Positions 15,772-56,274 of a DNA stretch of 64,000 nucleotides are shown here, piece by piece. A model generated the notes under the pieces. That model was not told where the DNA came from, made no database searches, and saw nothing but the letters and a program-made list of their open reading frames with translations. Position 1 is the stretch's first letter, and each line of letters opens with the position of its first letter. Both the position numbers and the translations under genes were made by a program. Source of the DNA: Chloroflexota bacterium (lineage in GTDB: Bacteria; Chloroflexota; Limnocylindria; Limnocylindrales; CSP1-4); assembly GCA_034430475.1 (NCBI GenBank), contig DAOUEA010000071.1, positions 25,098 to 89,097 of the forward strand. The letters are read 5' to 3'.

Positions 15772-15819
15772 GTCCTCTGCGGGCGTGGCGGGCCGGCAGC
15801 GCCTCTCGCGGCGCGCTAA

Positions 15820-16012: not shown

Positions 16013-16040
16013 ACGTCACCCACCTGCGCGCAACGGTTGG

Positions 16041-16096: not shown

Positions 16097-16097
16097 A

Positions 16098-21481: not shown

Positions 21482-21495
21482 GCCGAGCCCGCTGG

Positions 21496-36299: not shown

Positions 36300-37178
36300 T
36301 CAGGCGAAGGCCACCGCGGCGTAGCCCACCGTCCGCCCGGGGTCGCCGCCCGCGTCGGCGGAGGTCGCTTTGCCGAGCAGGATCCCCCGCTTCGCCCCCA
36401 TCTCACCCAAGGCGGTCAGCGTGAACCGGGTTGCGTCGATGCCGCACATGCCGCACACCAGTCCGGGCAGCCCGGCCAGAGTCAGGGCGGCTTCCAGATC
36501 GCCCAGGGTGTCCGCGTCGAGGCGCAGAAGTGGGGCCAGGAGGCGGTCGTCGGCTTCCTCGCACACGGCTGCGGGCGGGTAGTGGGCGAAGTCGGAGCTG
36601 GCCACGATGAGGATCCGCTCTCCCGCCGCGCGCCTGGCCGCCAGCAGCCGGCCAACGGCGGCGCCTGCTTCGGTGTGGGCCCTGAGGCGAGGGCTGACCG
36701 CCAGCGGCACGATTTGCGCCTGGGGGCAGGTCCGGGCCAGCAGAGGCAGCTGGATCTCGATCGAATGCTCGCTGCCGTGACAGTCGTCGTCGGCTGCGAA
36801 GGGCTTGCCGAGCCCGGCTATCTCCGCCGTCAGATCACGGTCGATGGCGACCTCGCCCAACGGCGTCAGCCACGGGCCACCGGTCCAGACTCCGACGCCG
36901 TCAGCCCAGGCTCCATGGTCAGTGCCGGCAATGACGATCGTGGTTGGGGCGATCTCGCCCGCGAGGCGCCAGGCCAGGGCGGCGATCGCGCCCGAGAAGA
37001 CCAGGCCGGCATGAGGGACGAGCAGCCCGCAGACGAGGCCGGCCTCCAGGCCTTCGGGTCGCGCGACAGACCCCGCTTCCGCGAGGAGCGAGTCGACGAG
37101 GCCCTTCAGCCGGTCGGGCTGGGCGGGGTAGAAGCTGCCGGCTACGGCCGGGCGGCGGGGAGCGGCGCCGGGGCTCAT
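36300..37178 (-). CDS. AmmeMemoRadiSam system protein B (MEMO1-like)
   Basis: ATG at 37178 (the track ORF extends to 37508) overlaps the radical SAM stop (ATGA). AGSFYPAQPDRL, VPHAG..FSG and SEHSIEIQLP. Confidence 0.85.
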   Translation of the reverse strand: MSPGAAPRRPAVAGSFYPAQPDRLKGLVDSLLAEAGSVARPEGLEAGLVCGLLVPHAGLVFSGAIAALAWRLAGEIAPTTIVIAGTDHGAWADGVGVWTGGPWLTPLGEVAIDRDLTAEIAGLGKPFAADDDCHGSEHSIEIQLPLLARTCPQAQIVPLAVSPRLRAHTEAGAAVGRLLAARRAAGERILIVASSDFAHYPPAAVCEEADDRLLAPLLRLDADTLGDLEAALTLAGLPGLVCGMCGIDATRFTLTALGEMGAKRGILLGKATSADAGGDPGRTVGYAAVAFA

Positions 37179-38272
37179 GGCGTTCCGTCCCGGCGGCCCC
37201 ACTCGTCCAGCCCGACGCCCGCCAGAGAGTGACCGCACATCGCACAGAGGCCATCCTCGAGGGCCGCCCGGACGGCGACGTAGCCTCGCCGCCGGATCAG
37301 CGTCTCGCCACAGCTCGCGCAGTGGGTGTCTTCGTCGCCGTCGTGGAGGTTGCCCGAGTAGACGTGGCGCAGGCCGGCCGCCCGCCCCGCCTCCACTGCC
37401 CGGCGGATGGTCTCCACCGGGGTCGGCTCCAGGTCCGACAGCTTGTAGGCCGGGAAGAAGCGGCTGACGTGCCAGGGCGTCTCCGGGCCGAGGTTGGAGA
37501 CGAGCCATCGGGTCAACTCGTCCAGGCCGGCGGGGTCGTCGTTGAGGCCTGGGATCAGGAGCGTCGTGACCTCGAGCCAGATCCCGCGCGCTTTCATGCC
37601 GGCCAGGGTCTCCAGGACCGGCGCCAGGCGGGCGCCCACAACGTGCCGGTAGAAGCTGTCGTCGAAGGCCTTGAGGTCGACGTTGGCGGCCTGGACGAGC
37701 GGCGCCAGGGCGTCCAGGGCCTCCGGGGTCTGGTAGCCGTTAGTGACCAGGACGTTGGCCAGCCCCGCCTCCGCGGCCAGGCGCGCCGTCTCCACGACGT
37801 ACTCGATGAAGACCGTGGGCTCGGTGTAGGTGTAGGCGATGCTGCGCGAACCGGCGGCCAGGGCCGCCGAAACGACGGAGGCCGGCGGCAGCGGGAAGTC
37901 GGGGATCCCAAGGTCCTCGCTTTCGGCCTGCGAGATCGACCAGTTCTGGCAGTGCAGGCAGTGGAAGTTGCAGCCCCTGGTGGCGATCGAGAAGGCGATG
38001 CTGCCGGGATGGAAGTGGAAGAGCGGCTTCTTCTCGATCGGGTCCGCGCCGGCTGAGACGGCCCGGCCGAAGACGGCCGTCAGCAACTTGCCGTCCACGT
38101 TGAGGCGGACATGGCAGATGCCGGCTCGGCCGGGGCGGACCAGGCAGCGGTGGGCACAGGCCAGGCAGCGCACGGCGTCGGCGGCCTCGGGCTGCCACAG
38201 GATCGCCGGGTGTGCGGCAGGAGGCGGGGCCTTGCGGTCGGGGCGTACGGGCGGGCGGTTGGTCGATTGCAC
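37175..38272 (-). CDS. AmmeMemoRadiSam system radical SAM enzyme
   Basis: 365 aa. N-terminal Cys cluster CLACAHRC...GICHVR, then DPIEKKPLFHF and the radical SAM motif GCNFHCLHCQN (CxxxCxxC). Confidence 0.88.
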   Translation of the reverse strand: MQSTNRPPVRPDRKAPPPAAHPAILWQPEAADAVRCLACAHRCLVRPGRAGICHVRLNVDGKLLTAVFGRAVSAGADPIEKKPLFHFHPGSIAFSIATRGCNFHCLHCQNWSISQAESEDLGIPDFPLPPASVVSAALAAGSRSIAYTYTEPTVFIEYVVETARLAAEAGLANVLVTNGYQTPEALDALAPLVQAANVDLKAFDDSFYRHVVGARLAPVLETLAGMKARGIWLEVTTLLIPGLNDDPAGLDELTRWLVSNLGPETPWHVSRFFPAYKLSDLEPTPVETIRRAVEAGRAAGLRHVYSGNLHDGDEDTHCASCGETLIRRRGYVAVRAALEDGLCAMCGHSLAGVGLDEWGRRDGTP

Positions 38273-38436
38273 AGCTGTTCAGGGCCATGCTGGATTCGAT
38301 CGGGCTCGAAGGCAAGAGCCGAACTGCCCCGGCCGGGCTGCCTCAGCGCGTGATCGGCCTGCGGTGTTGGGCCGCTCCGGCACGGAGCGGGGCCATGTTC
38401 GTGCCAGGCAGCCGGTCCGGTCTGCGCAGCCGGAGA

Positions 38437-39885
38437 TCAGCTCCGACTCTGCGAACCGGAGATCGCCTCGAGGGCCAGGCGGCGCGTGTGGCGGTGGCGC
38501 TCGATGGTCTCTGTGTCACGCTCAATCGCCGGCAGCAGCGTGCCTCGGTCGGTCTTCCAGCGGGCGGCGACATCGCCGGGCGCCTCGCCCAGCAGTACGG
38601 ACGCGGCCTGGACCGCGCCACCCATGGCCACAAGCTCGGTAGCCTCGGGGATCGAGACCGGGCGGCCGGAGAGGCGTCGCACCACGTCCTGCCAGGTCTT
38701 GCCACGCGCCCCGCCACCGATCAGGACCAGCGGCGCATCGGCGTTCACGCCGGACGAGCAGCGGTCGATCGTGTCGATGGCCTCGAGCAGGCTGACCGCC
38801 ACGCCTTCGTAGGTGGCCATCAGGATGGCCCCCGGATCCGTGTCGTGGCGCAGGCCGAAGAAGGCGGCTGCCGCCTCGGGCAGGTTGGGCGTCCGCTCGC
38901 CGTCGAAGTAGGGCAGGGCCACTACCTCGCCGCTCGCCGTGACGTCGTCACGCTCGAGCTTGAGCATGGCCGCGACCCTGTCCACGGCCAGGGTGCAGTT
39001 GAGGGTGCAGGCCAGCGGCAGGAAGAGGCCGGACGCATCGGCGAAGCCCGCCACGTCGCCGCTCGGATCCGCGATCCGAGTCTTGGACACCATGTAGGCC
39101 GTGCCCGACGTGCCCAGGCTGACGACCGGTACTCCCGACCGGAGGCCCAGCCCCAGGGCCGCGCCCATGTTGTCGCCGGTGCCGGGCCCAACCACGGTAC
39201 CGGCCCGCAAGCCCGTGGCCTCGGCGGCCGCCGCTGTGACGGTGCCGGCCGCCTCGGCGGGGCCGAGTACCTTCGGCAGAAGGGCCGGGTCCAGGCCCAG
39301 CTCCGGTAGGGCCAGGACCTCGGCCGAGTAGGCGCCATCCGCAGTTGACCACCAGGCCGTCCCGGAGGCGTCGCCGCGATCGGTGACGCCCACGCCGGTG
39401 AGTCGCTCCGTCAGGTAGTCGTGGGGCAGGCGGATAGCGGCCGTCCGGGACGCCGTCTTGGGCTCCACGCGGCGCAGCCAGGCCCACTTGGAGGCGGTGA
39501 AGGAGGCCACCGGGACGACGCCCACGCGTTCCGCCCAGGCGGCGGCGCCGAGCGCCTCGACCAGGCGGGCAGCGTCCGGTCCGGAGCGGGTGTCGTTCCA
39601 GAGCGTCGCCGGGCGCAGCGGCTGGCCTGCCTCGTCGAGGCAGACCAGGCCATGCTGCTGCCCGGCCACGGAGACGGCATCAATCTCATTCGCCAGCTCG
39701 GTCTGGCCCAGGGCGGTCCGCAGGGCCTCCCACCAGACCTGGGGGTGAGTCTCGCGGGCGCCGTCGCTGCCCTCCACGGTGTGGGGGGCCTGACCGCGAG
39801 CTACCTCGCGGCCGGTCTCGACATCAACCACCACGACCTTGGTTGACTGCGTCGAGCAATCGACACCGGCCGCCAGCCTCTTCAT
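38437..39885 (-). CDS. xylB: Xylulokinase (FGGY family)
   Basis: 482 aa. GGAGGAG upstream. FGGY N-terminus GVDCSTQSTKVVVVD. Sits immediately downstream of xylA. Confidence 0.85.
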   Translation of the reverse strand: MKRLAAGVDCSTQSTKVVVVDVETGREVARGQAPHTVEGSDGARETHPQVWWEALRTALGQTELANEIDAVSVAGQQHGLVCLDEAGQPLRPATLWNDTRSGPDAARLVEALGAAAWAERVGVVPVASFTASKWAWLRRVEPKTASRTAAIRLPHDYLTERLTGVGVTDRGDASGTAWWSTADGAYSAEVLALPELGLDPALLPKVLGPAEAAGTVTAAAAEATGLRAGTVVGPGTGDNMGAALGLGLRSGVPVVSLGTSGTAYMVSKTRIADPSGDVAGFADASGLFLPLACTLNCTLAVDRVAAMLKLERDDVTASGEVVALPYFDGERTPNLPEAAAAFFGLRHDTDPGAILMATYEGVAVSLLEAIDTIDRCSSGVNADAPLVLIGGGARGKTWQDVVRRLSGRPVSIPEATELVAMGGAVQAASVLLGEAPGDVAARWKTDRGTLLPAIERDTETIERHRHTRRLALEAISGSQSRS

Positions 39886-39920
39886 TGTCTCCTCCCCCCG
39901 CTCAATCGCGGGCGGCCTGC

Positions 39921-41111
39921 CTAGCGGGCGCCCAGGATGAGCTCCACAACCAGCTGGTCAAGGCGCTCGTTGTAGTAGCCGCGATTGGCGAGCGCGGCGG
40001 GATCGCCCGGGTTGTCGTGGAGCTCCTTGGCCGCCGCGGCGGAGTAGGCGCCCACTGTCGGCTTGCCCAGCTCGGCGACCGAGGCGGCCTCCATGGCGGC
40101 CTTGATCTCCGGATCGGCGGCGAAGCGCTTGGCCTTCTCCTTGAGGAGCAGGTAGGTCCGCATGCACCCCGCGGCAAAGTCCCAGACGCCTTCGGGGTTC
40201 TCTCCGCGATAGGCATGGGCGTCGAAGTGGCGCGGCCCTTCGTAGCCCGACTCCTCGAGCAGCTTGACCAGGAAGAAGGCGTCCTTGAGGTCCTCGGAGC
40301 CGAACCGGAGATCCTGGTCGTAGCGCCCGATCTTCTGGCCGTTGAGGTCGATGTGGAACAGCTTGCCGTGCCACAGGGTCTGAGAGACGGCGTGGTAGAA
40401 GCTCAGGCCGGACATGGTCTCGTGGGCAGTCTCCGGGTTGAGTCCGACCATCTCCGGATGCGCCAGGGTGCTGATGAAGGCCAGGGCGTGACCGACTGTG
40501 GGCAGGAAGATGTCGCCCCGCGGCTCGTTCGGCTTGGGCTCCATGGCGAAGCGAAGCCCGTAGCCCTGGTCGATGACGTACTCGCACAGGAAGTCCATGG
40601 CCTCGCGGTAGCGGTCCAGGGCGTCGGACGGCTTCTTGGCCGCCATCGACTCGACGCCTTCCCGGCCGCCCCAGAAGACGTAGGTCTTGGCCCCCAGCTC
40701 GGCGCCCAGGTCGATGGCCCGCATTGTCTTGGCCAGGGCGAAGCGACGCACGGCGCGGTCGTTGGAGGTGAAGGCCCCGTCTTTGAACACGGGGTTCTTG
40801 AAGAGGTTGGTGGTCGCCATCGCGACGACCATGCCCGTCTCGTCGAGCGTCTTCTTGAACCTCTTCACGATCTCGTCCCGCTCGGGAGAAGGGGATCCGA
40901 ACGGGACGAGATCGTCGTCGTGGAGCGAGACGCCGTAGGCTCCCAGCTCCGCCAGCTTGCGCACGCTGTCATTGGGGTCGAGACGTGGGCGCGTGTCCTC
41001 GCCAAAGGGGTCGCCGCCGGGGTTGCCGACGGTCCAGAGGCCGAAGGTGAACTTGTGGGCGCGATTCGGCTTGTACGCCTCGCTGTGCGCCTCGACTGCC
41101 TGCTGGGCCAT
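39921..41111 (-). CDS. xylA: Xylose isomerase, class I (short, actinobacterial/Thermus type)
   Basis: [28 protein letters not shown] and [11 protein letters not shown]. The ATG at 41111 has GGAGG 8 nt upstream and is preferred over the track start at 41126. Confidence 0.95.
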
Positions 41112-41225
41112 GACCCTGACCTCCATCGCTTATGCGTTCTGCGCCGGCTGGGCTGCCGGCGTCCCGGTGCGGGCTCCGGGGTCCTTACTCGCGGGGTCTC
41201 CCGGGCTCGGCTTCACTTGCGAGTT

Positions 41226-41244
41226 GCAATCGTATGCCGCATAT
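41226..41244. promoter_or_regulatory. Candidate operator/promoter motif, site 1 (GCAATCGTATG-CCG-CATAT)
   Basis: Shares the exact 11-mer GCAATCGTATG and the GTATG-N3-CATA inverted-arm layout with 55522-55540. Lies in the xylA/ABC divergent region. Confidence 0.45.
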
Positions 41245-41279
41245 CCTTCGACAGCAAGCCCTTGACTGCGGCAGCATGC

Positions 41280-41291
41280 GTATGCTACATA
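41280..41291 (+). promoter_or_regulatory. Candidate operator/promoter motif, site 2 (GTATGCTACATA)
   Basis: Exact reverse complement of TATGTAGCATAC at 55529-55540. TTGACT at 41262-41267 lies 18 nt upstream of the TACATA part. Confidence 0.45.
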
Positions 41292-41518
41292 GGTATGCGC
41301 CCGGCGCCAATGCCCGCCGGCTGAGGCTGGTGTGGTTGCGTCCGGCATCAAGGAGGACCGGCAAGTTGAGCCGGCAATGCGGAAGCCAGGGCAGCGGAGG
41401 AGGCGTCGATAGGCGAACTGACACTCGGAGTGTCGGTGAACGAGGCGGTACAGAAGGGTACGCCCGTGGAGAGACCGCCTGGAGAACCGTCGTATTGGAA
41501 CTGTAAGGAGGATCGATA

Positions 41519-42841
41519 GTGAACCTGGTCCCGAAGCGGCTACTCGGTGTGGTTGCGGTCGTCGCGCTGGTCGCGGCGTGCTCGTCCACCGAGGCGACGC
41601 CCACAAGCGCGCCGGCAAGCGGGGAGCCGACCCCGGAAGCCAGCGCGACCCCCGCGCCTGTGACCATCAACTGGTGGCACATCACTACCGGCGAGCCCGG
41701 CAAGACCATCTTCCAGGGCATCGCGGACGCCTACACGGCCGAGCATCCCTGGGTGACTATCAACATCACCGTCCTCGAGAACGAGGCCTTCAAGACCAAG
41801 CTGAACACCAGCCTGCAGTCGGGCGAGGCGCCCGACCTGTTCCAGTCCTGGGGTGGCGGCACGATGGCCCAGCAGGCCGAGGCCGGCTATCTCCAGGACA
41901 TCACGTCGTCCATTGCCGATTGGTCGGACACCCTCGGCGGTGCCCTGAGCATCTACAGCTACAACGGCAAGGTCTACGGCGTGCCGTGGGACATGGGCAT
42001 GATCGGCTTCTGGTACAACAAGGCCGCGTTCACGAAGGCCGGTATCAGCGCCCCGCCCACGACCTGGTCCGAGTTCCTGACTGACGTCCAGATGCTCAAG
42101 GACAGCGGCATCGCTCCTCTCGCCATCGCCGGCAAGGACATGTGGCCGTCGATGCACCTCTGGACGTACCTGATCCTCCGCCAGGCGGGCTACGAAGCCC
42201 TCCAGCAGATGATCCAGACCGGCGACTGGAACACCGACGCCTGCAAGGCCGCCGGTGACGAGGTCGTCAAGCTCAACGCCTTGAGCCCGTATCAGGACGG
42301 CTACAAGAGCGCTACCTACGACAACGAAGCGGCTGCGGTCGGCAACGGCAAGGCGGCCATGGAACTGATGGGCCAGTGGGCTCCTGGCGTTGAGGCCAAC
42401 AACAGCGCTGACGGCAAGGGCCTCGGCGACGATCTCGGTTGGTTCGCGTTCCCCGGCGTTGAAGGCGGGAAGGGCGATCCGACCGACGGCGTCGGCGGCG
42501 GCAACGGCATCGCGGTTGGCAAGGACGCTCCGGCCGAGGCCATCGATTTCCTGAAGTTCTTCTCGAGCGTGCCGAACGCCCAGAAGATCATGGATCCGGA
42601 CGAGACCGGCAACAGCATGGGCCTCTCCCCGGTCAAGGGCACTGACGGCTCGGTCCTGCCGGCTACCCTGCAGATGGTTCTCGCCGGCGTGAACAACGCC
42701 AAGCACATCCAGCTCTACCTGGACCAGGCCACCGACTCGGCCATGGGCACCGCGATCAACAAGGCGACTGTCGCCCTGTTCCTCGGCGCCTCGACCCCCG
42801 AGAAGGTCTGCCAGGAGATCACCACGGCGGCTTCCCTGTAG
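41519..42841 (+). CDS. ABC sugar transporter substrate-binding lipoprotein (solute-binding family 1)
   Basis: 440 aa, GTG start with AAGGAGG upstream. Lipobox LVAACSS. Typical SBP_bac_1 composition (WWH...GK...FQSWGGG...GVPWDMG.IGFWYNK). Confidence 0.9.
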   Translation: MNLVPKRLLGVVAVVALVAACSSTEATPTSAPASGEPTPEASATPAPVTINWWHITTGEPGKTIFQGIADAYTAEHPWVTINITVLENEAFKTKLNTSLQSGEAPDLFQSWGGGTMAQQAEAGYLQDITSSIADWSDTLGGALSIYSYNGKVYGVPWDMGMIGFWYNKAAFTKAGISAPPTTWSEFLTDVQMLKDSGIAPLAIAGKDMWPSMHLWTYLILRQAGYEALQQMIQTGDWNTDACKAAGDEVVKLNALSPYQDGYKSATYDNEAAAVGNGKAAMELMGQWAPGVEANNSADGKGLGDDLGWFAFPGVEGGKGDPTDGVGGGNGIAVGKDAPAEAIDFLKFFSSVPNAQKIMDPDETGNSMGLSPVKGTDGSVLPATLQMVLAGVNNAKHIQLYLDQATDSAMGTAINKATVALFLGASTPEKVCQEITTAASL

Positions 42842-42883
42842 CAGCCGATCGTGGTTTGGCCAACCTGAGTAGTTAGTTATGGT

Positions 42884-42912
42884 GAGCGGGCCGGCGGCAA
42901 GCCGGCCCGCTC
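42884..42912 (+). promoter_or_regulatory. Strong intra-operon stem-loop after the binding-protein gene
   Basis: GAGCGGGCCGGC-ggcaa-GCCGGCCCGCTC is a perfect 12-bp stem with no T-tract. Located between the SBP stop (42841) and the permease start (42939). Confidence 0.55.
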
Positions 42913-42938
42913 AACTCCCGGGTACGTGAGGACGGCAT

Positions 42939-43886
42939 ATGAGCTTGAGCGCAGTGAGAGTCTCGGCGCGGAGCGGAGAGAGCCAGCGCGCGAAGTGGCT
43001 GACAATCGGCGTGTTCCTGCTGCCGGCGCTGGCTCTCTTCTTGACGTTTGTGGTGTACCCGGTCATATCGGCGGCCCGCTATAGCCTGTACAAGTGGGAC
43101 GGGCTGCAGCCGCTCACCGACTTCGTCGGCACCAAGAACTACGAGACGGCATTCGCCAGCGACCTGTTCATACACTCCATCCAGAACAACTTCCTGATAA
43201 TCGCGCTCTCGCTGACGATCCAGATCCCGTTCTCCTTGATGCTGGCCACTCTCCTGAACCGGCGCTTCCCGGGCCGGGCCGTCTTCCGGCTGCTCTTCTT
43301 CCTCCCGTACGTCCTCTCGGAGGCGATCACGGGCATCATCTTCTTGCTCATGCTCCAGCCCAGCGGTTCCGATGATTACTTCACGGCTTTGATGAAGAAC
43401 TTCGGCCTGGGCGGGTTCGTCCAGGACTGGCTGGGCGATACGACATTCGTGATGGTGACGCTGTTCGTCGTCATCTCGTGGAAGTACTTCGGCTTCCACA
43501 TGATCATCCTGCTGGCCGGCCTGCAGGGCATCCCGCGGGAGATCGAGGAGGCGGCCTTCATCGATGGCGCAGGGCGCTGGCAAGCGTTCCGCCATGTCAC
43601 TCTGCCGCTTCTCGGCCCTACCCTGCGCGTCTCCGTATTCCTGTCGATGATCGGCGCGGTGCAGCTCTTCGACATGGTCTGGGTCATGACCAGGGGCGGC
43701 CCGCTCGACGCTACCGACACGATGGCTGTCTCGTTGTTCTACGCGGGCTACATCGATCACCACGTGGGCTACGGAAGCGCTATGGCCGTAATCCTGTTCC
43801 TCTTCGGGCTCGTCCTCTCCCTTGCCTACCTGCGCTTCGTGCTGAGGCGGGACGTCGAGGGCGCCGTCACGGCTTTCAATGCCTAG
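42939..43886 (+). CDS. ABC sugar transporter permease (MalF/LacF-like)
   Basis: 315 aa, six TM segments. EAA-loop region EEAAFIDGAGRWQAFRHVTLPLL. Confidence 0.9.
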   Translation: MSLSAVRVSARSGESQRAKWLTIGVFLLPALALFLTFVVYPVISAARYSLYKWDGLQPLTDFVGTKNYETAFASDLFIHSIQNNFLIIALSLTIQIPFSLMLATLLNRRFPGRAVFRLLFFLPYVLSEAITGIIFLLMLQPSGSDDYFTALMKNFGLGGFVQDWLGDTTFVMVTLFVVISWKYFGFHMIILLAGLQGIPREIEEAAFIDGAGRWQAFRHVTLPLLGPTLRVSVFLSMIGAVQLFDMVWVMTRGGPLDATDTMAVSLFYAGYIDHHVGYGSAMAVILFLFGLVLSLAYLRFVLRRDVEGAVTAFNA

Positions 43887-44835
43887 CGAGATGGGAGCGA
43901 CAATGGATACGACAGCCGAAGACAGGACGGTCGAGACGCCGGTCGGGCCGGCGGTGGGCCGCCGGGTCAGGATCGGGCGCCCCCGCGTTAGCTGGCCGAC
44001 CGGGATAGACATCCCCTACATCCTCCGCTACATCATCTTGCTGGCGGTTGCCGCGGCCATACTGCTGCCGCTGGTCTACGGGGTCCTCGGTGGCGCCAAG
44101 ACCAACCAGCAGCTCGTGGGCGACCCCGTCTCGTTGATTCCGGCCCCCTGGACCGTGTCGAACTACACAGACGTGTTGTTCGGACCCAGCTCGCCGGACT
44201 TCTGGCAGCAACTCCTCAACAGCCTCATGGTGGCCGCCGTCGCGGTCTCGTTCACGGTCATCGCGGCCTCGCTGGCGGCATTCACTTTCGCGAGGATGGT
44301 CTTCCGCGGACGCGAGGCCATCTACACGTTCTTCGTCATGGGTCTGCTCTTCCCGGCGGCCGTTGCCATCCTGCCGCTCTTCATTCTCCTGCGGCAACTG
44401 GACCTGAACGGAAGCCTTCTCGGAGTGGCCCTCCCGGAAGCCGCGTTCGGCCTTCCCCTGAGCATCATCATTCTTCGCCCGTTCTTCAAGAGCATTCCGG
44501 TCGAGCTCGAGGACGCGGCCAAGATCGACGGCTGTTCGAACTTCGGCTTCTTGTGGCGGGTTCTGCTGCCCCTGTCGCGCCCGGCGCTCGCCACGGTCAG
44601 CGTTCTGGCCTTCGTCGGCAGCTGGAACGCGTTCATGCTCCCTCTGATCATCCTGGACAACGCGAACACGTGGACGCTGCCGCTCGGGGTCATGAACTTC
44701 CAGGGCCAGTACACGTCCGACAAGGCGCTGGTCCTGGCGTACACGGTGACCGCGGCGATCCCGGCGGTGGTCTTCTACTTCTTCGCCGAGCGCCAGCTGG
44801 TCGGCGGCCTAACCGGCGGAGCGGTCAAGGGCTGA
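43879..44835 (+). CDS. ABC sugar transporter permease (MalG/LacG-like)
   Basis: 318 aa. EAA loop LEDAAKIDGCSNFGFLWRVLLPL. The start may instead be the ATG at 43903, which has GGGAG upstream. Confidence 0.9.
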   Translation: MPSEMGATMDTTAEDRTVETPVGPAVGRRVRIGRPRVSWPTGIDIPYILRYIILLAVAAAILLPLVYGVLGGAKTNQQLVGDPVSLIPAPWTVSNYTDVLFGPSSPDFWQQLLNSLMVAAVAVSFTVIAASLAAFTFARMVFRGREAIYTFFVMGLLFPAAVAILPLFILLRQLDLNGSLLGVALPEAAFGLPLSIIILRPFFKSIPVELEDAAKIDGCSNFGFLWRVLLPLSRPALATVSVLAFVGSWNAFMLPLIILDNANTWTLPLGVMNFQGQYTSDKALVLAYTVTAAIPAVVFYFFAERQLVGGLTGGAVKG

Positions 44836-44836
44836 C

Positions 44837-47167: not shown

Positions 47168-47196
47168 CCCGCGTCGCCGGACCGCTCACGGAAGAC

Positions 47197-47259
47197 TGCC
47201 CTTGCGCGGTCAGGGCCGCGCTTCGCGCGGTCGGTCAGCCTGCGCTTCGCGCGGTCAGG
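47197..47259. repeat. Three tandem copies (about 24-bp period) of a hairpin-forming unit in a convergent intergenic region
   Basis: GCGCTTCGCGCGGTC occurs exactly at 47218-47232 and 47242-47256, with a partial copy TTGCGCGGTCAGG at 47202-47214. Each full unit contains CCGCGC-ttc-GCGCGG or GCGC-ttc-GCGC stems. The last copy overlaps the PfkB stop codon. Confidence 0.7.
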
Positions 47260-48178: not shown

Positions 48179-50765
48179 TGGGTGTCGCGGCGCCGCCTGG
48201 CCGTCGCTTGTCCGAGCCCTTGAGCAGCTCGGAGAAGAACGGCATCAGGTCGGACGGCTCCAGGGTCTTGGTCCCCCGCTTCGCCTGCAGGTCCTTGACG
48301 TGGTTCAGGACCAGGTGCGTCCACACCGCGCCGGGGCGAGGATAGGCGGCGACGATGTAGTGAGGTCCGGGGGCGGGCTCTCCGGCTTCCTGCTCCAGCT
48401 CCGCCCGGAGGTTGTCCGGGGTGATCATGGAGTTGGAGTAGTCGAAGACGACTCGGTCCATGTGCTTGTAGACCTTCTTGCTCTCCCTGGTCATGCCGTA
48501 GTAGTCGAGCAGCTGGGCAAGGACGTAGTTGGACGTGGTGTAGACGTCCTTCCCCTGGTCCGACTCCACCGGCTGTCCGTCCTCGGTCTTGCACATGGCC
48601 CAGCCCATGAAGGAGTGGTTGTTGCGGTAGATGGTCTTGAGGATCTTCCTGGCGTGATCGTCCGAGATGAAGGGCTCCTCGCCGATGGAGATCAGGTACC
48701 AGAGAGCATCGAGCTGGTTGGTCCAGACGTCGGTGTTGGCGACCTCGGTCTCGGGATCGAAGCAGGTGACGTAGTACTGGAGCCGCTCGCCCTTCGCGTT
48801 CTTCGTGTCCCGCCACAGCCTCTCTAGACTGGCCCAGCCCTTGTCGAAAACCGCCCTGATCCGCGCCTCGCCCTCGGCGTCCCCGAGCATCTGGGCCATC
48901 TTGAGCATGGCCTGGCAGCCGCCCAGGAACTGCGTGGCGTCGTACGCGTCGGCGCCGAACAGGACCAGGTTGTCGAAGGTGTTCTTGACTTCGTCGGGGT
49001 AGCCCTCGGGTAGGCCGTCCTCGTCGAAGTCGAGCTTGAGCAGGGTCTCCAGGCCGAACTTGAGGGTCTCCCAGTTCTGCCGCAGGAAGTCGACATCGCC
49101 CGTGAACTTGACGTTGCGCAGGACGCGCATCGCCAGCTTGGGAAACAGGTCCACCCAGTAGTTGCTGTTGTACCAGGCGTAGTCGTTGACGTTGCGCAGG
49201 GGATGACCCTTGGGCATGGCCCCAAGATCGTGGGCCACGCTGCCCAGCGTCTTGTAGGCGGCCCGGATCTGGGTCATCGACTCGTCTTCGTACTCCTCCG
49301 GGTGCTCTTCGAAGTGCTGCCTGGCCTCGACGAAGGAGGCGTGGTAGTGGTACCAGTGCGGGCTGGGATCCTCGGCCCGGATCGAATCGATGAAGCCCTG
49401 GCAGAGGTCCTTCTCCACGCGCGGGGCGAGCATCAGCAGCACCATCGAGTACCAGTCCACGTCCGAGGGATCGATGTAGGCGTAGTCGAAGCACTCCAGG
49501 AAACGGGCGCGCTCGCGGCCCTGCTCGTCCTCGATCCAGACGATGGCGTTGGAGAGCGGGAAGTGCAGCTCGTTGAGGATGAGCCGGGTCAGGCGCAGGG
49601 CGCCGGCGCGGTCGGTCCGGTATGAAGGGCTGGAGTGGATCCCTTCAAAGACCCGCCGCTGGATTGCCGCGGTCCGGTCCTGCCAGAGCGTGTAGCTCTC
49701 CAGGGCGAGCCTGGCCATCTCTGCAGGCCGAGCGCCGGCATCCTCGAAGCTCTTGACGTACTTGCGGTCGAACGTCGTGCCGTCGATGTAGGACTGCACC
49801 GGGAAGTCGAGGACCACGGCCACCGGGATCTTCCGCGACGCCTTCGGCCCCAGGCTGAATGTCAGGCCGACGGCGGCCCCATAGTCGCTCCGGAGGACCG
49901 GCTGGCGCTTCTCGTAGAAGCTGCCGTCGGCGGCCAGGAGGAGGTCCTCCTTGTAGCGGTTCAAGCAGAAGTACGGCTGCACGTCCACGCTGACGCCCGG
50001 CATCTCGGGGACGGCCAGTGCCATGCGGTTCTGCGTCTCCGTGCTGCCCATGACCACGCCCCGCATGCCCGCCGAACGGAGCTCCTGGTGCTCGTGGCCG
50101 TGGACGGCCGCGGTGCTGACGTAGACGCTGTCCTGGTCGGTGGGCTTGAGCTCCTTCTCCTGGAGGTTGACCAGAGATGGCCGTGGAACGACGAGCGTGA
50201 TCTCCCGGGCCTCGTCGGAGGCGTTCTCGACCTCGAACTCCTCGACGCCCAGGGGCATCAGGGCCTGCTCGTTGCCGGAGAGCAGCGGCGAGATGAGCCT
50301 GCGGGTGACCTTGACCTTGCCGAGCTTGAAGGCCATCTCCAGGGAGGGCGTGGCCACACTGAGAGAGACGTTCCGGACGCCGGCCGGGGCGTGGTAGTAG
50401 TTCCTGGTCATGGGGATGTCGTCGGGCAGCTCCGACTCTCCCGGCTGTTTCTGAGTCAGCAGCGTGCACTTGCCGCCGAGGCGGATGAAGGGAGCGGAGC
50501 CGAGCTGGACAGCATTCTGGTTCAGCATGATCAGCCGGCCCGCGTCGTTCAGGCGGTTGTAGAGGCCGTACGGCGAGATGCCGATCGAGCAGGTGGGCGC
50601 TCCCTGGAGGGCCACCGTCTGCGGGAACTGGAGAGTCTTGGACATGCCCTGGAAGTGGACCGTCATCCTGTTCTGCTCGTAGATGGCGGCGATCCTGGGC
50701 CCGGAGATGGTGTAGATCTCGCGGACGTCGAAGGCGGCGGGTTCGGGAGTCCTGGTCTTGCTCAT
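48144..50765 (-). CDS. Glycoside hydrolase family 116-like (GBA2-type beta-glucosidase/xylosidase; N-terminal GH116N plus DUF608-type catalytic domain)
   Basis: 873 aa. FLECFDYAYIDPSDVDWYSMVLLMLAPRVEKDL parallels the GBA2 segment EG.Y..YNTYDVHFYASFAL..LWP.LE. HDLGAMP...NDYAWYNSNYWVDLFPKLAMRVLRNVKFTGDVDFL and FDEDGLPEG parallel GBA2 HDIG..., WKDLN.KFVLQ and FD.D.DGLIEN. Confidence 0.72.
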   Translation of the reverse strand: MSKTRTPEPAAFDVREIYTISGPRIAAIYEQNRMTVHFQGMSKTLQFPQTVALQGAPTCSIGISPYGLYNRLNDAGRLIMLNQNAVQLGSAPFIRLGGKCTLLTQKQPGESELPDDIPMTRNYYHAPAGVRNVSLSVATPSLEMAFKLGKVKVTRRLISPLLSGNEQALMPLGVEEFEVENASDEAREITLVVPRPSLVNLQEKELKPTDQDSVYVSTAAVHGHEHQELRSAGMRGVVMGSTETQNRMALAVPEMPGVSVDVQPYFCLNRYKEDLLLAADGSFYEKRQPVLRSDYGAAVGLTFSLGPKASRKIPVAVVLDFPVQSYIDGTTFDRKYVKSFEDAGARPAEMARLALESYTLWQDRTAAIQRRVFEGIHSSPSYRTDRAGALRLTRLILNELHFPLSNAIVWIEDEQGRERARFLECFDYAYIDPSDVDWYSMVLLMLAPRVEKDLCQGFIDSIRAEDPSPHWYHYHASFVEARQHFEEHPEEYEDESMTQIRAAYKTLGSVAHDLGAMPKGHPLRNVNDYAWYNSNYWVDLFPKLAMRVLRNVKFTGDVDFLRQNWETLKFGLETLLKLDFDEDGLPEGYPDEVKNTFDNLVLFGADAYDATQFLGGCQAMLKMAQMLGDAEGEARIRAVFDKGWASLERLWRDTKNAKGERLQYYVTCFDPETEVANTDVWTNQLDALWYLISIGEEPFISDDHARKILKTIYRNNHSFMGWAMCKTEDGQPVESDQGKDVYTTSNYVLAQLLDYYGMTRESKKVYKHMDRVVFDYSNSMITPDNLRAELEQEAGEPAPGPHYIVAAYPRPGAVWTHLVLNHVKDLQAKRGTKTLEPSDLMPFFSELLKGSDKRRPGGAATPIGPHGYDREVD

Positions 50766-50878
50766 CGGTCGCTCATGGTTCGTCCCGGGCAGTCGGCGGA
50801 TGGAAGGATGGAAGCGACGCGTTTCCGGGGATCCGGGCCGGACGCGGACCGCGCCCGGCCGGCGGAAGGCGCGTCAGC

Positions 50879-52723
50879 CTAGCACTTGCCTCCCCACGGG
50901 TTGGGCTGCCTGCCGGCCGGCTTCCTGGCCGGCTTCTTCGGGGCAGCCGGCGCCCGGGCCGGGAGGTCCTTCTCGGCGCTAAGGTCGATCGGCATCTTCG
51001 TCGTAGGATACGGCTTGACCGCCCCGAAGAGCAGATCCGCGGCAATCCGGATCGAATCGGGCGAGCCCGAGAAGTTGCAGACCACGGCGTCGGCTTCGCT
51101 GGTCGTACCCCGGAGATAGGGGAAGTTGGTGACGACGACGACGGTATGGCCGGCGTCCTTCAGAGCCTTGACCAGGTGCTGATTGTTGCCTCGCTTCTCG
51201 ATGCGAGCGTAGTAGTTGGTCATGACGACCAGGTCGGCCTCTTTGGCCAGCCGCAGCGCCTCCTCCACGTCTTCGTCGGCCGCATGGAAGGCGGTGTCGT
51301 CCAGGATGAGGTTGATGGAGTGCTTGGCCATCTGCTCACAGAACATGTGCGGATGACTGTACAGGTCCTTCCCCAGGAAGGAGTAGGGGATGCACTGCTC
51401 GATGACCAGGATCTTCTTGTCCTTGCTCAGCGGCAGCAGCTTCTTGCCGTCGCGGACGACCAGGAGGGCCTTCTGCGCTACCTCCCTGGAGAAGCCCTGG
51501 ACCTCCGTGCTCCAGACGTGAGCCCGAGTCCTGGCCGGATCCATCTTGCCGGCCTTCTCGAACAGGCCCTGGTCGTACTTCATGCAAAGCAGCCGGCGGC
51601 AGGCGTCGGTGAGCCTCTCTTCGGACAGCTCGCCGCGCTCGACGGCGCTCTTGATTCCGAAGAAGCACTGGGCGCGTGACTCGTCGTCCGCCTTGAGAAG
51701 GATCGTGTCCACGCCCGCCTTGATCGCCATGGCGCAGGCCTGGGGGAGCGGCCACTTCTTGAGAATGGCGGCCATGCCGATGGCGTCCGAGACGATGACG
51801 CCGTCGAACCCCATCTCGCCGCGCAGCAGGTCGGCCAGGATCTTGCGCGAGAGAGTGGCCGGATACTCCTTGTCGAAGGCGGGGAAGATGGTGTGGGCCG
51901 TCATCAGGGCCCGGGCGCCGGCGTCGATGCCGGCCTGGAAGGTGACCAGCTCGACCTCGCGCATTCGCTTCTCGTCGCCCCGGCAGACATCCAGCACGTC
52001 GTGGGCGTCGGTCGCCGAGTCGCCGCGGCCGGCGAAGTGCTTCACGGTGGCCGTGATCCCGGCGTCCTGGTAGCCGCGCACCGTCGCCGCCACGAACCTG
52101 GCGCATACCTGCGGGTCGTCGCCGAAGGAGCGCACCCCGATCTCGGGGTTGAGGGGGTTGATGTTGACGTCGCAGACCGGGTGGTAGAACTGCGTCACCC
52201 CCATGGCGGCCATCTGCTGGCCGAGCGTGTTCGCCACCTTGTAGGCCAGGTCGACGTCGCCGATGGCGGTCATGCCCATGGGCGGAGGGAACTGGACGAC
52301 GTGGCCGGAGGTGAAGTCGTTCTTGAAGTCGCCCTCCATGTCGATGGTGACGTGCAGGGGGATGCCCGACGGCCGGGACAGGGCGATCTCCTGCAGCCGG
52401 TTGAGGGCGACAGTGAGCTCCTCCGGGGTGACGCTCACGCCGAAGCTGCGATCGTCGAAGTAGGTGTGCGCGATGTCGAAGTAGTCCTTCGGCTTCTTGA
52501 AGTCGGGGTCGACCTGCGAGCGCCCCCAGTAGAGGTTCTTGCAGGTCTCAAGCGCATACGGCTCCAGGCAAACGCCGCCGGCGTGGAGCCGGGTGATCTG
52601 CTCGACCCCCGAAGGCGTCAGATACGCCCCACGCCAGGTAAACGTGAGCACCTGGCCGCACTTCTCGGCCAGGGTCATGCTCGCCAGCTTCTCTGAGACA
52701 AAGGCGTCTCGGTCCTTCGACAT
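50879..52723 (-). CDS. Cytoplasmic glycoside hydrolase family 3 (NagZ/BglX-like two-domain enzyme)
   Basis: 614 aa. GGAGGAG upstream. LAEKCGQ, KHFAGRGDSATDAH and nucleophile region FDGVIVSDAIGM. Confidence 0.85.
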   Translation of the reverse strand: MSKDRDAFVSEKLASMTLAEKCGQVLTFTWRGAYLTPSGVEQITRLHAGGVCLEPYALETCKNLYWGRSQVDPDFKKPKDYFDIAHTYFDDRSFGVSVTPEELTVALNRLQEIALSRPSGIPLHVTIDMEGDFKNDFTSGHVVQFPPPMGMTAIGDVDLAYKVANTLGQQMAAMGVTQFYHPVCDVNINPLNPEIGVRSFGDDPQVCARFVAATVRGYQDAGITATVKHFAGRGDSATDAHDVLDVCRGDEKRMREVELVTFQAGIDAGARALMTAHTIFPAFDKEYPATLSRKILADLLRGEMGFDGVIVSDAIGMAAILKKWPLPQACAMAIKAGVDTILLKADDESRAQCFFGIKSAVERGELSEERLTDACRRLLCMKYDQGLFEKAGKMDPARTRAHVWSTEVQGFSREVAQKALLVVRDGKKLLPLSKDKKILVIEQCIPYSFLGKDLYSHPHMFCEQMAKHSINLILDDTAFHAADEDVEEALRLAKEADLVVMTNYYARIEKRGNNQHLVKALKDAGHTVVVVTNFPYLRGTTSEADAVVCNFSGSPDSIRIAADLLFGAVKPYPTTKMPIDLSAEKDLPARAPAAPKKPARKPAGRQPNPWGGKC

Positions 52724-52768
52724 CTAGGGTCTCCTCCGGGGGTCTTGGTTCAGTTGCTGGATGGGTGC

Positions 52769-53938
52769 CTACGGCCCGTCGTGGGCAGCCACGGCTACCG
52801 GTCCGGACGAATCGCGGATCACGAGGTCAGGCTTGAGGATGCGGAGCGTGACCGCGTCGGGACCGCTTTGCTCTTCGACGGCCGCCTTGACGGCCGCGGC
52901 CGCCATTTGAGCGATCGGCATGTGCACGGTCGTCAGGGCCGGGGTCGTGTACTCGGCCATCGGCAGGTCGTCGAAGCCGACGATGGAGATCTCGCCGGGG
53001 ACGTCGATATCGGCTCCGCAGGCCGCATGGAGCGCGCCGATGGCCAGCACGTCGGTGGAGGCCATGATCGCCGTGGGCCGTTCCGGGAGCTCCATCAGCT
53101 CCCTGAGGGCCTGGGCGCCGCCGGGCAGGGTGTTGTGAGCGTCCCGCACGTACGACTCGGGTATGGCCAGCCCTTCGGCCCCCGCCCGCTCCAGGAACGC
53201 TGCTCGCCGCTCGCCGATGTCGCCGATCAGCTGGCCCTCCGAAAAGGCGCCGCCCACGAAGGCGATGCGCCGGTGTCCCAGCCCGAGCAGATGGGTCATC
53301 AGGCCCTCGATGCCGGCCCGGTTGTCCACACCGACGACGGAGGTGCCGGGCATGGGCCGGGTGCCCTGCCACAGGCCCACGACGGGGAAGTTGGAATCGC
53401 GCAGTTCCTGCATGATGCGGGGCTGCTCGCTGGTATCACCGACGAGCAGGATGGCGTCGCAGTGCCGCGTCTCCAGCACGGCGCGCAGGGCGATGGCTTC
53501 TTCCGTTCGACCGTGGGCATGGCCGAGCACCACGTTGTAGCCGCGGCGGCTGGCTTCGGTGGAGATGGCGTCGATGGCGCCGGAGAAGAACGGGTCGGTG
53601 ATCTCGCGAACGATCACGCCCAGGAGCATCGTTCGCGCGCCGCGCAGGCCGCGAGCCAGGGGGTTGGGCCGATAGCGCATCTGGTGCGCGACCTCGAGGA
53701 TCCGCTCCCGCGTGGCAGGGTTGATGGGAATGGCGTTGGGCGCCCCGGTCAGGACGCGCGAGACCGTGCTCTGCGAGACGCCCGCGGCGCGGGCAATGTC
53801 CTGCATCGTGGGTGGGCGGCCTTGCCTTGCGGCCAGCAGCGCCACGTGATCGCCGGTCCGTGGTTCGGCCGGTTGCGATTCCCGCCGGGTCCTTTCGCGT
53901 CGAGCGCCCGATACGCTCTTTCGGGGTGGGATTGCCAT
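52769..53938 (-). CDS. LacI-family transcriptional regulator
   Basis: HTH TMQDIARAAGVSQSTVSRVL followed by a periplasmic-binding-protein-like sugar domain. The ATG at 53938 overlaps the abfA stop (TGATG) and gives a 44-aa basic N-terminal extension; an alternative GTG lies near 53845. Confidence 0.9.
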   Translation of the reverse strand: MAIPPRKSVSGARRERTRRESQPAEPRTGDHVALLAARQGRPPTMQDIARAAGVSQSTVSRVLTGAPNAIPINPATRERILEVAHQMRYRPNPLARGLRGARTMLLGVIVREITDPFFSGAIDAISTEASRRGYNVVLGHAHGRTEEAIALRAVLETRHCDAILLVGDTSEQPRIMQELRDSNFPVVGLWQGTRPMPGTSVVGVDNRAGIEGLMTHLLGLGHRRIAFVGGAFSEGQLIGDIGERRAAFLERAGAEGLAIPESYVRDAHNTLPGGAQALRELMELPERPTAIMASTDVLAIGALHAACGADIDVPGEISIVGFDDLPMAEYTTPALTTVHMPIAQMAAAAVKAAVEEQSGPDAVTLRILKPDLVIRDSSGPVAVAAHDGP

Positions 53939-55458
53939 CAGCGACCTTCTGATGTTGTGCCGGCCAGCTCGATCGTAGCGATCGAGCAGGGCGGCAAGGT
54001 GACCGTGAACGATCCGGGACCGTTCTCGGCTGCCGCCAGCGGCCGCGTCGAGACCCGATCCGGTTGGACAGGTGTGTTCGAGGCGTCGGGTGTGTCGGCC
54101 GCGAGAACCCCGCCGGACACGACCTTGCCTGCAGCTCTCACGGTAACGGGGAGCTGGCGCCCGAAATCGCGGTTCAGGACCGTGACGGCCAGCGATTCGC
54201 CGCGGCTGGAAGCCGTGGCGCTGATTGCCGGGCGACCCGACGGCCCGGCAGGGCCGCTCGAAACCTCGACCTGGAGTGCCTCGGCGCCCATGTGCGGCCG
54301 GTGGAGGGCGAAAGCATGGTAGGTGGGGGTGCGCACGCAGGCAGCCCCGTCGATCAGCAGCACGGTATGGAGCACGTTGGCCACCTGCGCCAGATTGGCC
54401 ATTGTGAGGACGCGGCACTGGCGGTGGAAGCCCTCGAGGGCGATCGCCGCGGCCAGGGCGTCGCGCATGGTGGAGGCCTGCTCAAAGGTGAGAGGCGTGC
54501 GACGGGCCACGTCGCCGGGGCCCCAATCGCGAGCCTCCGGGTGCCAGACGCCCCATTCGTCCAGGGCGACACCGATCTTCCGTTGCGGCGAAACCTCGGC
54601 CAGGAGCCGGCCGGCGCGCTCGACCATACCCTCGGTCTCGGACGCCTCGTCAAGGAGGGTGTAGTAGTCGGCCTCGGAGAACCCGGTTTCCGGGCCGCCC
54701 TGAACCCAGTAGCGGTGGACCGAGAGGTGGTCGAGCAGGGGCACTCCCTCGCCCATCGCCGCCAGGAGCTTGGCGTTCCACTGCGGGTCAACGCCGGGGC
54801 CCGCCAGGCCGGCGTCTTCCATGCCGACCGCGACCAGCTCCACCGCCGGATCCACGTGGCGAATCATCGTCGCGTAGCGCAGGTACTCGTGGGCGTACGA
54901 GGCCGGGTCGTAGCGGCCGCCGCAGTCCCAGGTCTCGTTGCCGACTCCCCACAGCCGAACGCCCCACGGCTCGCGCCTGCCGTTGGCGATTCGCTCCTGC
55001 GCCAGATCGGTGGGCGCCGTTCCGTTGACGTACTCGACCCAGTCGCAGGCCTCCTGCACCGAGCCGGAGCCGACGTTGAGGGCGAGATAGGGCTCGGCGC
55101 CGAGGTCCTCGCACAGGCCCAGGAACTCGTGAGTCCCAATGGCGTGGCTATCTGCCACCCGGGTGCCGCACGACGTGCCGAGCGTCCGCGGCCGACGGTC
55201 GGGCGCGCCCACCCCGTTTCGCCAGTGATAGTGATCGGCGTAGCAGCCGCCGGGCCAGCGGATCAGGGGGGCGCCGAGTTCACGCAGAGCCTCGACCGCG
55301 TCCGCGCGGAAGCCCGCCTTGGACCGGCCGTCTTCGCCGCCATCGGCCCACAGCCCACCGTAGCAACAGCGGCCCAGGTGCTCGGCGAAATGCCCGTACA
55401 GGCGCGGAGAGATAGTCCCAATCGGCTGGTCAAGGACGACCACCGACGCTTCTGCCAC
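53938..55458 (-). CDS. abfA: Alpha-L-arabinofuranosidase, glycoside hydrolase family 51
   Basis: GTG at 55458 (the track ORF extends to 56160); about 506 aa. ISPRLYGHFAEHLGRC.YGG.W, IRWPGGC.AD.YHW..G.G, acid/base region WGVGNETWDCGG, and LDEWGVW. Confidence 0.88.
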   Translation of the reverse strand: MAEASVVVLDQPIGTISPRLYGHFAEHLGRCCYGGLWADGGEDGRSKAGFRADAVEALRELGAPLIRWPGGCYADHYHWRNGVGAPDRRPRTLGTSCGTRVADSHAIGTHEFLGLCEDLGAEPYLALNVGSGSVQEACDWVEYVNGTAPTDLAQERIANGRREPWGVRLWGVGNETWDCGGRYDPASYAHEYLRYATMIRHVDPAVELVAVGMEDAGLAGPGVDPQWNAKLLAAMGEGVPLLDHLSVHRYWVQGGPETGFSEADYYTLLDEASETEGMVERAGRLLAEVSPQRKIGVALDEWGVWHPEARDWGPGDVARRTPLTFEQASTMRDALAAAIALEGFHRQCRVLTMANLAQVANVLHTVLLIDGAACVRTPTYHAFALHRPHMGAEALQVEVSSGPAGPSGRPAISATASSRGESLAVTVLNRDFGRQLPVTVRAAGKVVSGGVLAADTPDASNTPVQPDRVSTRPLAAAENGPGSFTVTLPPCSIATIELAGTTSEGR

Positions 55459-55521
55459 TTGGCTGCCCCCTGCGGTCACGCTGCATCTGGAAGGACCTAC
55501 CGGGCCGCCCAGAGAGGCCCG

Positions 55522-55540
55522 GCAATCGTATGTAGCATAC
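55522..55540. promoter_or_regulatory. Candidate operator/promoter motif, site 3 (GCAATCGTATG-TAG-CATAC)
   Basis: Contains both shared words (11-mer with site 1; 12-mer reverse complement of site 2). Inverted arms GTATG/CATAC. Lies 64-82 nt upstream of the abfA start in the abfA/AMMECR1 divergent region. Confidence 0.5.
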
Positions 55541-55689
55541 CATACCCGGCATTCACCACCAGCGCATACCCCGGCAATCGGATGCTGCCAGGATCCACTG
55601 GCGACGCGCGTGAAACATCCGCTGGCGACGCGTTCAGAACCTTCCGTTCGACTCTGGCGCCGGCGGCCGCGACGGTTCAGCCTGCCCCC

Positions 55690-56274
55690 ATGCACCCTCT
55701 TGCGAAGCCCGAGCGCACGCTGCTGCTGGACCTGGCCCGGGCCACCGTGGAGGCCACGGCCCGCGGCGAGGCGCGCCCGGAGCCGGAGCCGGCCAGCCTG
55801 ACCCCGGGCCTGCTCGCCCCGGGCGCTGCCTTCGTTACCCTCCACGAGCATGGGCAGCTGCGCGGCTGCATCGGCATGATGGCTTACGAGCGGCCGCTGT
55901 GGGCCAACGTCAGGGACTCGGCCGTGGCCGCCAGCCGGGACGACCCCCGCTTCCGACCGGTTGGCGCGGCCGAGCTTCGGGACATCGAGATCGAGGTCTC
56001 CGTCCTGGAGCCGCCGCGGCCCATCGCCGACCCTGGCGAGTTCGTGGCCGGCCGCCACGGGATCGTCATCGAGCGCGGCCTGAACCGCGGCCTCTTGCTG
56101 CCTCAGGTGGCCACCGAACAAGGCTGGGGCGAGGCGGAGATGCTGGAGGCGGTGTGCCATAAGGCCGGGCTGGGCGCCGATGCCTGGCGCGACCCCGGGA
56201 CGCAGCTGTACGTCTTCGAGTCGTTCTGTTTCGGAGGGGCAGACGACGAGGAGCCTGAATCGCCGCCCGGCTGA
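55690..56274 (+). CDS. AmmeMemoRadiSam system protein A (AMMECR1 domain)
   Basis: ATG at 55690 inside track ORF 54064..56274; 194 aa. GAAFVTLHEHGQLRGCIG, DPRFRPV and HGIVIERG.NRGLLLPQVA. Confidence 0.88.
   Translation: MHPLAKPERTLLLDLARATVEATARGEARPEPEPASLTPGLLAPGAAFVTLHEHGQLRGCIGMMAYERPLWANVRDSAVAASRDDPRFRPVGAAELRDIEIEVSVLEPPRPIADPGEFVAGRHGIVIERGLNRGLLLPQVATEQGWGEAEMLEAVCHKAGLGADAWRDPGTQLYVFESFCFGGADDEEPESPPG

Follow-up and report, generated by a model that had tools for sequence, protein, structure and literature searches.

A sugar-utilisation gene cluster lies between the divergent halves of an AmmeMemoRadiSam gene trio in a Limnocylindrales genome

The arrangement of a three-gene AmmeMemoRadiSam system was analysed in a 64,000-nucleotide stretch of DNA (the window; contig DAOUEA010000071.1, here C71:25098-89097) from a Chloroflexota metagenome-assembled genome (MAG) of 2.38 Mb, which comprises 127 contigs and is 91.7% complete. 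The closest relatives of this genome are Chloroflexota MAGs labelled Candidatus Limnocylindrales, which come from fens, peat and soils. As the window has about 70% G+C, many of its open frames are spurious; genes were called by their G+C content at the third codon position (GC3) and then confirmed with profile libraries. The trio consists of a Memo-like protein (B), a radical SAM enzyme (rS) and AMMECR1 (A), all of them full length and each beyond its curated NCBIfam cut-off. B is encoded on the minus strand at 36300-37178 (TIGR04336, 201 bits with a cut-off of 26, profile positions 1-270 of 270; Pfam Memo, 150 bits), and rS on the same strand at 37175-38272 (TIGR04337, 340 bits, cut-off 220). 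A is encoded on the plus strand at 55690-56274 (TIGR04335, 167-171 bits, cut-off 99; Pfam AMMECR1, 173 bits). The rS-B and A units are divergent and separated by 17,417 bp, while an ATGA overlap joins the stop of rS with the start of B and makes translational coupling of the two genes plausible. On all these points the original prediction, made from the letters of the window and its open frames, proved accurate: it had named the three genes, proposed coupling of the minus-strand pair, and placed AMMECR1 at the correct coordinates on the opposite strand, with the two units pointing apart.

Inspection of the translations revealed in rS the radical SAM motif CNFHCLHC (CX3CX2C) together with additional N- and C-terminal cysteine clusters, and in A the conserved cysteine of LRGCIG. 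B contains the motifs HAG, DHG, SEHSIE, SSDFAHY and CG, which we take to match the metal site of Memo. The start codon of rS is uncertain, the first start in its open frame being a GTG at 38272. Judged from its sequence, the trio of the window is complete and apparently functional. The designation "Memo-AMMECR1 system" reportedly goes back to work by Burroughs and colleagues published in JBC in 2019. PMC7159879 cites a "Memo-Ammecr1 system" together with its radical SAM enzyme, and AMMECR1 has been predicted to act in RNA base modification through its conserved cysteine (PMC4075521). The activity predicted for the trio from this literature is a radical-SAM-dependent modification, possibly of RNA, and no experimental function was found for it in the literature searched. 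Because the trio is widely conserved and functionally unsolved, any partner that stably accompanied it in genomes would be informative.

The interval between the two units (38437-55458) holds 11 genes, all of which were sugar-related in NCBIfam and Pfam profile searches, in agreement with the sugar catabolism claimed for the whole interval. Next to rS, on the minus strand, lie genes for xylulokinase (xylB, 38437-39885; TIGR01312, 432 bits, cut-off 380) and a xylose isomerase of the actinobacterial type (xylA, 39921-41126; TIGR02631, 599.5 bits, cut-off 447); both equivalog cut-offs were passed, as in a xylose utilisation locus. The plus strand then encodes a CUT1-type sugar ABC importer, composed of a binding protein (41519-42841; Pfam SBP_bac_1, 140 bits) and two permeases (42939-43886 and 43879-44835; BPD_transp_1, 64 and 60 bits), and a glycosidase of glycoside hydrolase (GH) family 3, of the beta-xylosidase/glucosidase type and with an Fn3-like domain (44837-47167; Glyco_hydro_3 263, Glyco_hydro_3_C 179 and Fn3-like 74 bits). 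The remaining genes are again on the minus strand. Three of them form an optional sub-block, namely a PfkB-family kinase (47255-48178; a weak Pfam match of 31.6 bits), a GH116 protein (48144-50765; Pfam) and a second GH3 protein, termed GH3b (50879-52723; Pfam). They are followed by a LacI-family regulator (52769 to about 53938) and a GH51 alpha-L-arabinofuranosidase (53938-55458; Pfam Alpha-L-AF_C 115 bits and ASD1_dom 26 bits, and GC3 frame plot). The start of the regulator is uncertain, its domain match beginning near 53818, and its assignment is at the family level only, with about 172-176 bits on NCBIfam models of the CytR/RbsR/GalS type, under their equivalog cut-offs.

Trio loci from 27 genomes of the same genus were compared by mapping the window proteins onto them. 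The outer genes, g32606-MFS-B-rS to the left and A-HtrA-ABC-2 exporter to the right, were nearly always kept, the exceptions being locus L022, without HtrA, and L033, without rS; the MFS gene adjoined B in every locus that reached that far. In the window the two flanking genes are, at the family level only, a DHA2-family MFS efflux transporter (34378-36027, minus strand; TIGR00711, 229 bits, cut-off 230.2) and an HtrA/Do-type serine protease (56421-57524, plus strand; TIGR02037, 228 bits, cut-off 416). The gap between rS and A ranged from 129 bp to 27 kb, and about nine congeners combined these outer flanks with a gap of 129-400 bp. In L033 (2328-4373), 690 bp lie between B and A with no rS detected between them, an apparent loss of the radical SAM gene.

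Across the genus the contents of the gap form a nested series. It holds nothing in G016, G015, G003, G019, G024, G030, G011 and L032, just an aldose 1-epimerase gene, immediately upstream of rS, in G006, G012, G021, L025 and L031, and xylB alone or xylB with a Zn-dehydrogenase gene in G005 and G028. Larger sets are xylB-xylA-LacI (G001), epimerase-xylBA-xylFGH-LacI (G029), a 12-kb block with the gene order of the window minus PfkB-GH116-GH3 (G010), the 17-kb form of the window, whose right end is common to L022, and a 27-kb version that includes GH31, aldehyde dehydrogenase and transketolase genes (G009). Other genes were found as well: the gap of G008 contains only a 1484-amino-acid PQQ/fn3 protein unrelated to sugars, and that of L026 contains FG-GAP and VCPO-like proteins beside xylA and xylFH. 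The classes with only the epimerase or only xylB are relics, showing that erosion of gap content happens. The same junctions recurred in independent MAGs (G010, with the 12-kb block on one contig; L022 and L028 on the right; G018 on the left), and the split layout is thus not an assembly artefact.

Fourteen genomes from other genera of the class were compared, and 10 of them had a contiguous, divergent trio with 200-380 bp between the B-rS unit and A; nine of the 10 belong to the same family and one to family f4. A tree of B, rS and A rooted on nine of the contiguous outgroups placed split and unsplit genomes within one monophyletic genus. Together, these data indicate that the contiguous divergent pair is the older form and the filled spacer the derived one. 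The other four outgroup genomes (G084 and G186 of genus g6, G134 of g12 and G095 of g8) had A without rS within 14 kb, which suggests that the trio may have come apart on more than one occasion in this family. On one contig of G084 (C2), A (52985-53491, plus strand) and rS (116232-117206, minus strand) are 63 kb apart.

The relatives therefore do not all share the split, since 10 of the 14 outgroup genomes and about nine congeners retain a contiguous form. The statement that the trio is usually contiguous holds for these genomes. In many other phyla neither B nor rS was detected within 10 kb of A; adjacency is usual, not universal. The Bacteroidales loci sampled had B-A with a convergent rS, in contrast to the divergent order of this family. 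The system of the window is like the known AmmeMemoRadiSam system in its proteins, in the cysteines of rS and A and in the single copies of A and B, and unlike it in that A lies 17.4 kb from rS-B.

Copy number was also determined. The incomplete assembly contains one A, one B and one rS adjoining B, and in addition an rS paralog fragment at the end of contig C11 (C11:3-554), which is 58% identical to the rS of the window and is accompanied by neither A nor B. Almost all genomes of the genus carry single A and B genes together with two rS genes, and B always adjoins the rS that faces A. The second rS (for example L066:6544-7893, from G016:C10) reached 335 bits on the AmmeMemoSam_rS model, also above the cut-off. 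In the three genomes examined for it (G016, G001 and G021), it adjoins hypF-hypC-hypD, is divergent from a VorB-type 2-oxoacid:ferredoxin oxidoreductase, and has no A or B nearby. The rS model evidently also captures a paralog of a different, possibly hydrogenase-related, context. A second AMMECR1 gene beside a second Memo/radical SAM pair, which would have made the A of the window an unrelated paralog, was not present, as the extra rS stands alone.

The gene xylA was found in 30 of 41 genomes of the genus, often on a contig other than that of the trio. The same block, in the order xylB-xylA, binding protein-permease-permease-GH3, PfkB-GH116 (where present) and LacI-GH51, lies elsewhere in G016, G027, G063, G030, G015, G032 and G003, and all of these except G027 and G063 were shown to carry a contiguous trio. 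The block adjoins an xylFHG transporter in G016, G027, G063, G030 and G015, and its GH51 end adjoins pyrG in G030 and G015. In G032 it is placed between orthologues of two genes that are neighbours on contig C105 of the genome studied here, and in G003 it is at yet another place, which gives at least four different chromosomal locations for it in a single genus. Reciprocally, the pyrG|xylG site is empty in the genome of the window, where only 371 bp separate the orthologous pyrG (CTP synthase, 839 bits) from xylG. Searches of the contiguous spacers with tblastn, using all block proteins, and with the operator pattern described below detected no relics of block genes or operator.

Two further observations concern the pyrG site. 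The empty pyrG/xylG-xylH-xylF spacer (C101:5545-5917) contains a tandem CATCCTGGCGCTCG repeat; a 10-mer common to this spacer and the region upstream of A was dropped as being at chance level (about 0.8 expected by a rough estimate). In G015 (L064; G015:C10:101001-121000), the block copy at this site is broken into many short frames, with xylA 58-61% identical, and represents either a decaying copy or assembly indel errors.

The block copies of G010, G030, G032 and G003 lack the optional PfkB-GH116-GH3b sub-block. PfkB-GH116 occurs at 81-88% identity in G016, G027 and G063, in loci that end inside GH116, and L022 carries a GH3b 91% identical to that of the window. These values (81-91%) are clearly above those of the neighbouring block genes (62-78%), and the sub-block is thus either more constrained or more recently exchanged.

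Analysis of the junctions showed that the block sits between two motifs that belong to the trio. On the left, the 164-bp spacer between xylB and rS (38273-38436, minus strand) contains a GC hairpin after xylB and a copy of a genus-wide pre-rS hairpin, GGGCCGTTCGGCCCTTT, which is followed by CCAGCATG; in the window this element lies at about 38305-38326 on the minus strand, with the hairpin degenerate, and the ATG in the CCAGCATG region is out of frame with rS. Spacer alignment showed that the motif AAGGGCCGAACGGCCC (plus strand) is kept before rS in contiguous and split genomes alike. On the right, the 231-bp junction (55459-55689) contains a palindromic 18-mer of the block (55522-55539) and then the genus-wide motif GAAnnnnCCnTTnGACTCTGGCG (55637-55659), located about 30 nt upstream of the start of A and likewise kept in contiguous and split genomes. 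With both proximal motifs kept and the block between them, each half of the trio would retain its own promoter-proximal control region.

The 18-mer, GCAATCGTATGTAGCATA, has the consensus GCAATCG[AT]ATG[CT]NGCATA. A repeat search located two further sites in the xylA/binding-protein divergent region (41226-41243 and 41274-41291), the third being in the GH51/A divergent region, and within this genome the 18-mer was confined to the block. At the GH51 end of the block, the 18-mer followed by ACCATnnCCGGCAT was found at every chromosomal site that the block occupies in congeners. This confinement and conservation are most simply read as marking an operator, and the 18-mers probably serve the LacI regulator encoded in the block. 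Apart from them, the repeat search found nothing at the block borders and no terminal repeats; no tRNA genes flank the block, and no mobility gene, such as an integrase or transposase, was found among the annotated open frames. A promoter and terminator scan yielded no sigma-70-like promoters, and neither junction showed a terminator. Folding of the xylB-rS spacer gave a strong but unremarkable GC hairpin (z = -1.84), and neither the scan nor the fold showed a U-tract terminator there.

The composition of the block was compared with the rest of the genome. Its interior is among the lowest 0.2-2% of 5-kb windows in G+C and at about the 98th percentile in tetranucleotide deviation. By contrast, its GC3 is 0.84-0.92 (13th-92nd percentile of the genome) and synonymous codon usage is typical in 10 of the 11 genes (codon distance at or under the 60th percentile), which shows that the G+C deficit is located in codon positions 1 and 2, not 3, and reflects amino-acid composition. 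Codon-usage and k-mer deviation of the interval from its flanks had been put forward as a check; measured against the genome, the k-mer deviation is present and the codon-usage deviation is not. Between congeners, block proteins are about 55-90% identical (most 62-85%; 56-58% for the decayed G015 copy; 81-91% for PfkB, GH116 and GH3b) and flanking proteins 56-87%. As the two ranges overlap, the block is an old resident of the genus and not a recent import, and its insertion is old as well. On codon usage and divergence, the block is a native gene cluster of the genus and not a foreign island.

Taken together, these results favour a history, to which we assign a probability of about 0.8, in which the trio was ancestrally divergent and a native LacI-controlled sugar cluster came to lie within its short spacer. 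The ancestral layout of the family would have been a divergent pair, B-rS and A, separated by about 0.2-0.4 kb. In one lineage of the window's genus, a LacI-controlled xylose/xyloside/arabinoside cluster, made up of xylB-xylA, the ABC importer, GH3, PfkB-GH116-GH3, LacI and GH51, would then have ended up inside this spacer, carrying its own operator and promoter ends as it changed place. The break fell between the two gene-proximal control elements, so that rS-B and A have each kept their upstream motif. Ordinary recombination probably sufficed, either as relocation within the genome or as exchange of a variant locus among congeners through the conserved flanks, and a mobile element is unlikely to be behind the move. 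Since the three products presumably act in trans as separate proteins, a separation of 17 kb should not impair the system. The idea of a divergent locus that took up a catabolic block, advanced in the original prediction, accords with the presence of the block elsewhere in congeners and with the preserved proximal motifs.

Several observations weigh against this history. Parsimony on the rooted tree needs about five changes. The blocks at the rS|A site are not united as a single clade in the gene trees of the block (one of xylAB, one of importer, GH3, LacI and GH51), whose weak support does not decide between a single insertion with spread and several insertions. All rS|A-site genomes that have the block's LacI, and also L026 and L028, have the same operator-to-A junction, a pattern that points to one old insertion with later losses or lateral spread instead of repeated insertions. 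The interior of the block is compositionally unusual, as described. In the split genomes whose rS side was recovered, the gene immediately upstream of rS, encoded on the same strand, is a sugar gene (xylB or an aldose 1-epimerase) and, with no clear terminator between xylB and rS, co-transcription and hence a regulatory link are possible. Two scenarios fit the data, a single old insertion with erosion, loss and exchange through the flanks, or several relocations. A further, improbable reading is that the 12-17-kb block forms a self-contained cassette, able to move among at least four sites without a recognisable mobility gene.

An alternative history places the split once in the ancestor of the genus and makes the contiguous trios of congeners secondary, the block having either been deleted cleanly or moved from the spacer to another site. 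The window would then show the older state of the genus and not a recent invasion. The shared operator-to-A junction in distant members of the genus is in favour of this history, and so are the identities of most block proteins, whose overlap with those of the flanks makes the block old, the erosion proven by the epimerase-only and xylB-only relics, and one large clade of the B, rS and A tree in which every member but L032 has sugar genes in the gap. However, given the contiguous outgroups, one gain and about seven losses are less parsimonious than about five mixed events, and no relics were detected in the contiguous spacers. Moreover, the split genome G010 is nested among the contiguous G016, G030 and G015, where the block is at the pyrG site. 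We therefore regard a single ancestral split as possible but rather unlikely.

A functional association of the trio with pentose and glycoside metabolism, the other option raised in the original prediction, would mean that the trio, or at least rS-B, was recruited into the xylose regulon of the genus, is co-transcribed from the xylA promoter, and acts on a sugar-related enzyme, cofactor or metabolite. About 17 of the 27 genus loci do have sugar genes in the gap, and xylB or the aldose 1-epimerase gene is directly upstream of and co-directional with rS in at least 13 genomes, even without the rest of the block. Besides the terminator-free xylB-rS spacer, an operator-like site of the LacI type is positioned 150 bp upstream of A. 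Read-through into rS-B from xylAB or the epimerase gene, with A beside the LacI operator, could thus have drawn the trio into a xylose/xylan regulon, and such recruitment would tie it to a pentose-related substrate or to the maturation of a sugar enzyme. We consider this regulatory scenario improbable, and equally so the wider recruitment of the trio. In about 10 congeners the trio is intact and its gap empty or almost empty, and the same block lies elsewhere in five of these; the upstream motifs of rS and A are kept whatever lies beyond them, and the gaps of G008 and L026 hold non-sugar genes. Outgroup genera have no sugar genes between the trio halves, no sugar gene was found closer than 10 kb to A in any of the 19 loci from other phyla, and the trio also occurs in archaea and anaerobes among the control genomes, which may lack xylose pathways. 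The association thus found no support beyond the genus and is probably not meaningful; the sugar neighbourhood appears to be positional and would not reveal the function of the trio.

A horizontally acquired foreign island integrated between rS and A is very improbable, because its low G+C, tetranucleotide deviation and variable presence among relatives are outweighed by typical GC3 and synonymous codon usage, by the occurrence of the same block in most congeners at a divergence comparable to that of core flanking genes, and by the lack of an integrase, transposase, tRNA or terminal repeat.

The locus represents a new lineage for a known, functionally unsolved system. Its split layout is unusual but has an ordinary cause, the probable insertion of a native sugar cluster into the divergent spacer, and is a case of ordinary genome plasticity and gene-order shuffling. 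The sugar neighbourhood would then be a lineage-specific accident of gene order, and a false functional lead is avoided. Genome plasticity zones are variable regions between conserved core genes. The rS|A site resembles them in its conserved flanks and in nested, eroded gap contents that differ between genomes, and differs from them in that no integrase, tRNA or insertion sequence elements were seen there and in that the zone of variation separates two divergent genes of one functional system. Here neither partner has lost its proximal control sequence. With its reciprocally filled and empty sites, the locus also offers a natural example of a regulated catabolic cluster that changes address within an uncultured peat and soil genus of Chloroflexota.

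The block itself resembles the LacI/XylR-type xylose and xylo-oligosaccharide clusters of Gram-positive bacteria and actinobacteria in its xylA type, xylB, binding-protein importer, exo-glycosidases and LacI repressor, as well as in the palindromic operator-like sites in divergent promoter regions. It differs from them in the optional GH116 and PfkB genes and in the placement of the unit at no fewer than four positions in one genus. Elsewhere in the window, positions 15001-22500 rank at the top of the genome's 5-kb windows in G+C (100th percentile) and deviate strongly in tetranucleotides (98th percentile).

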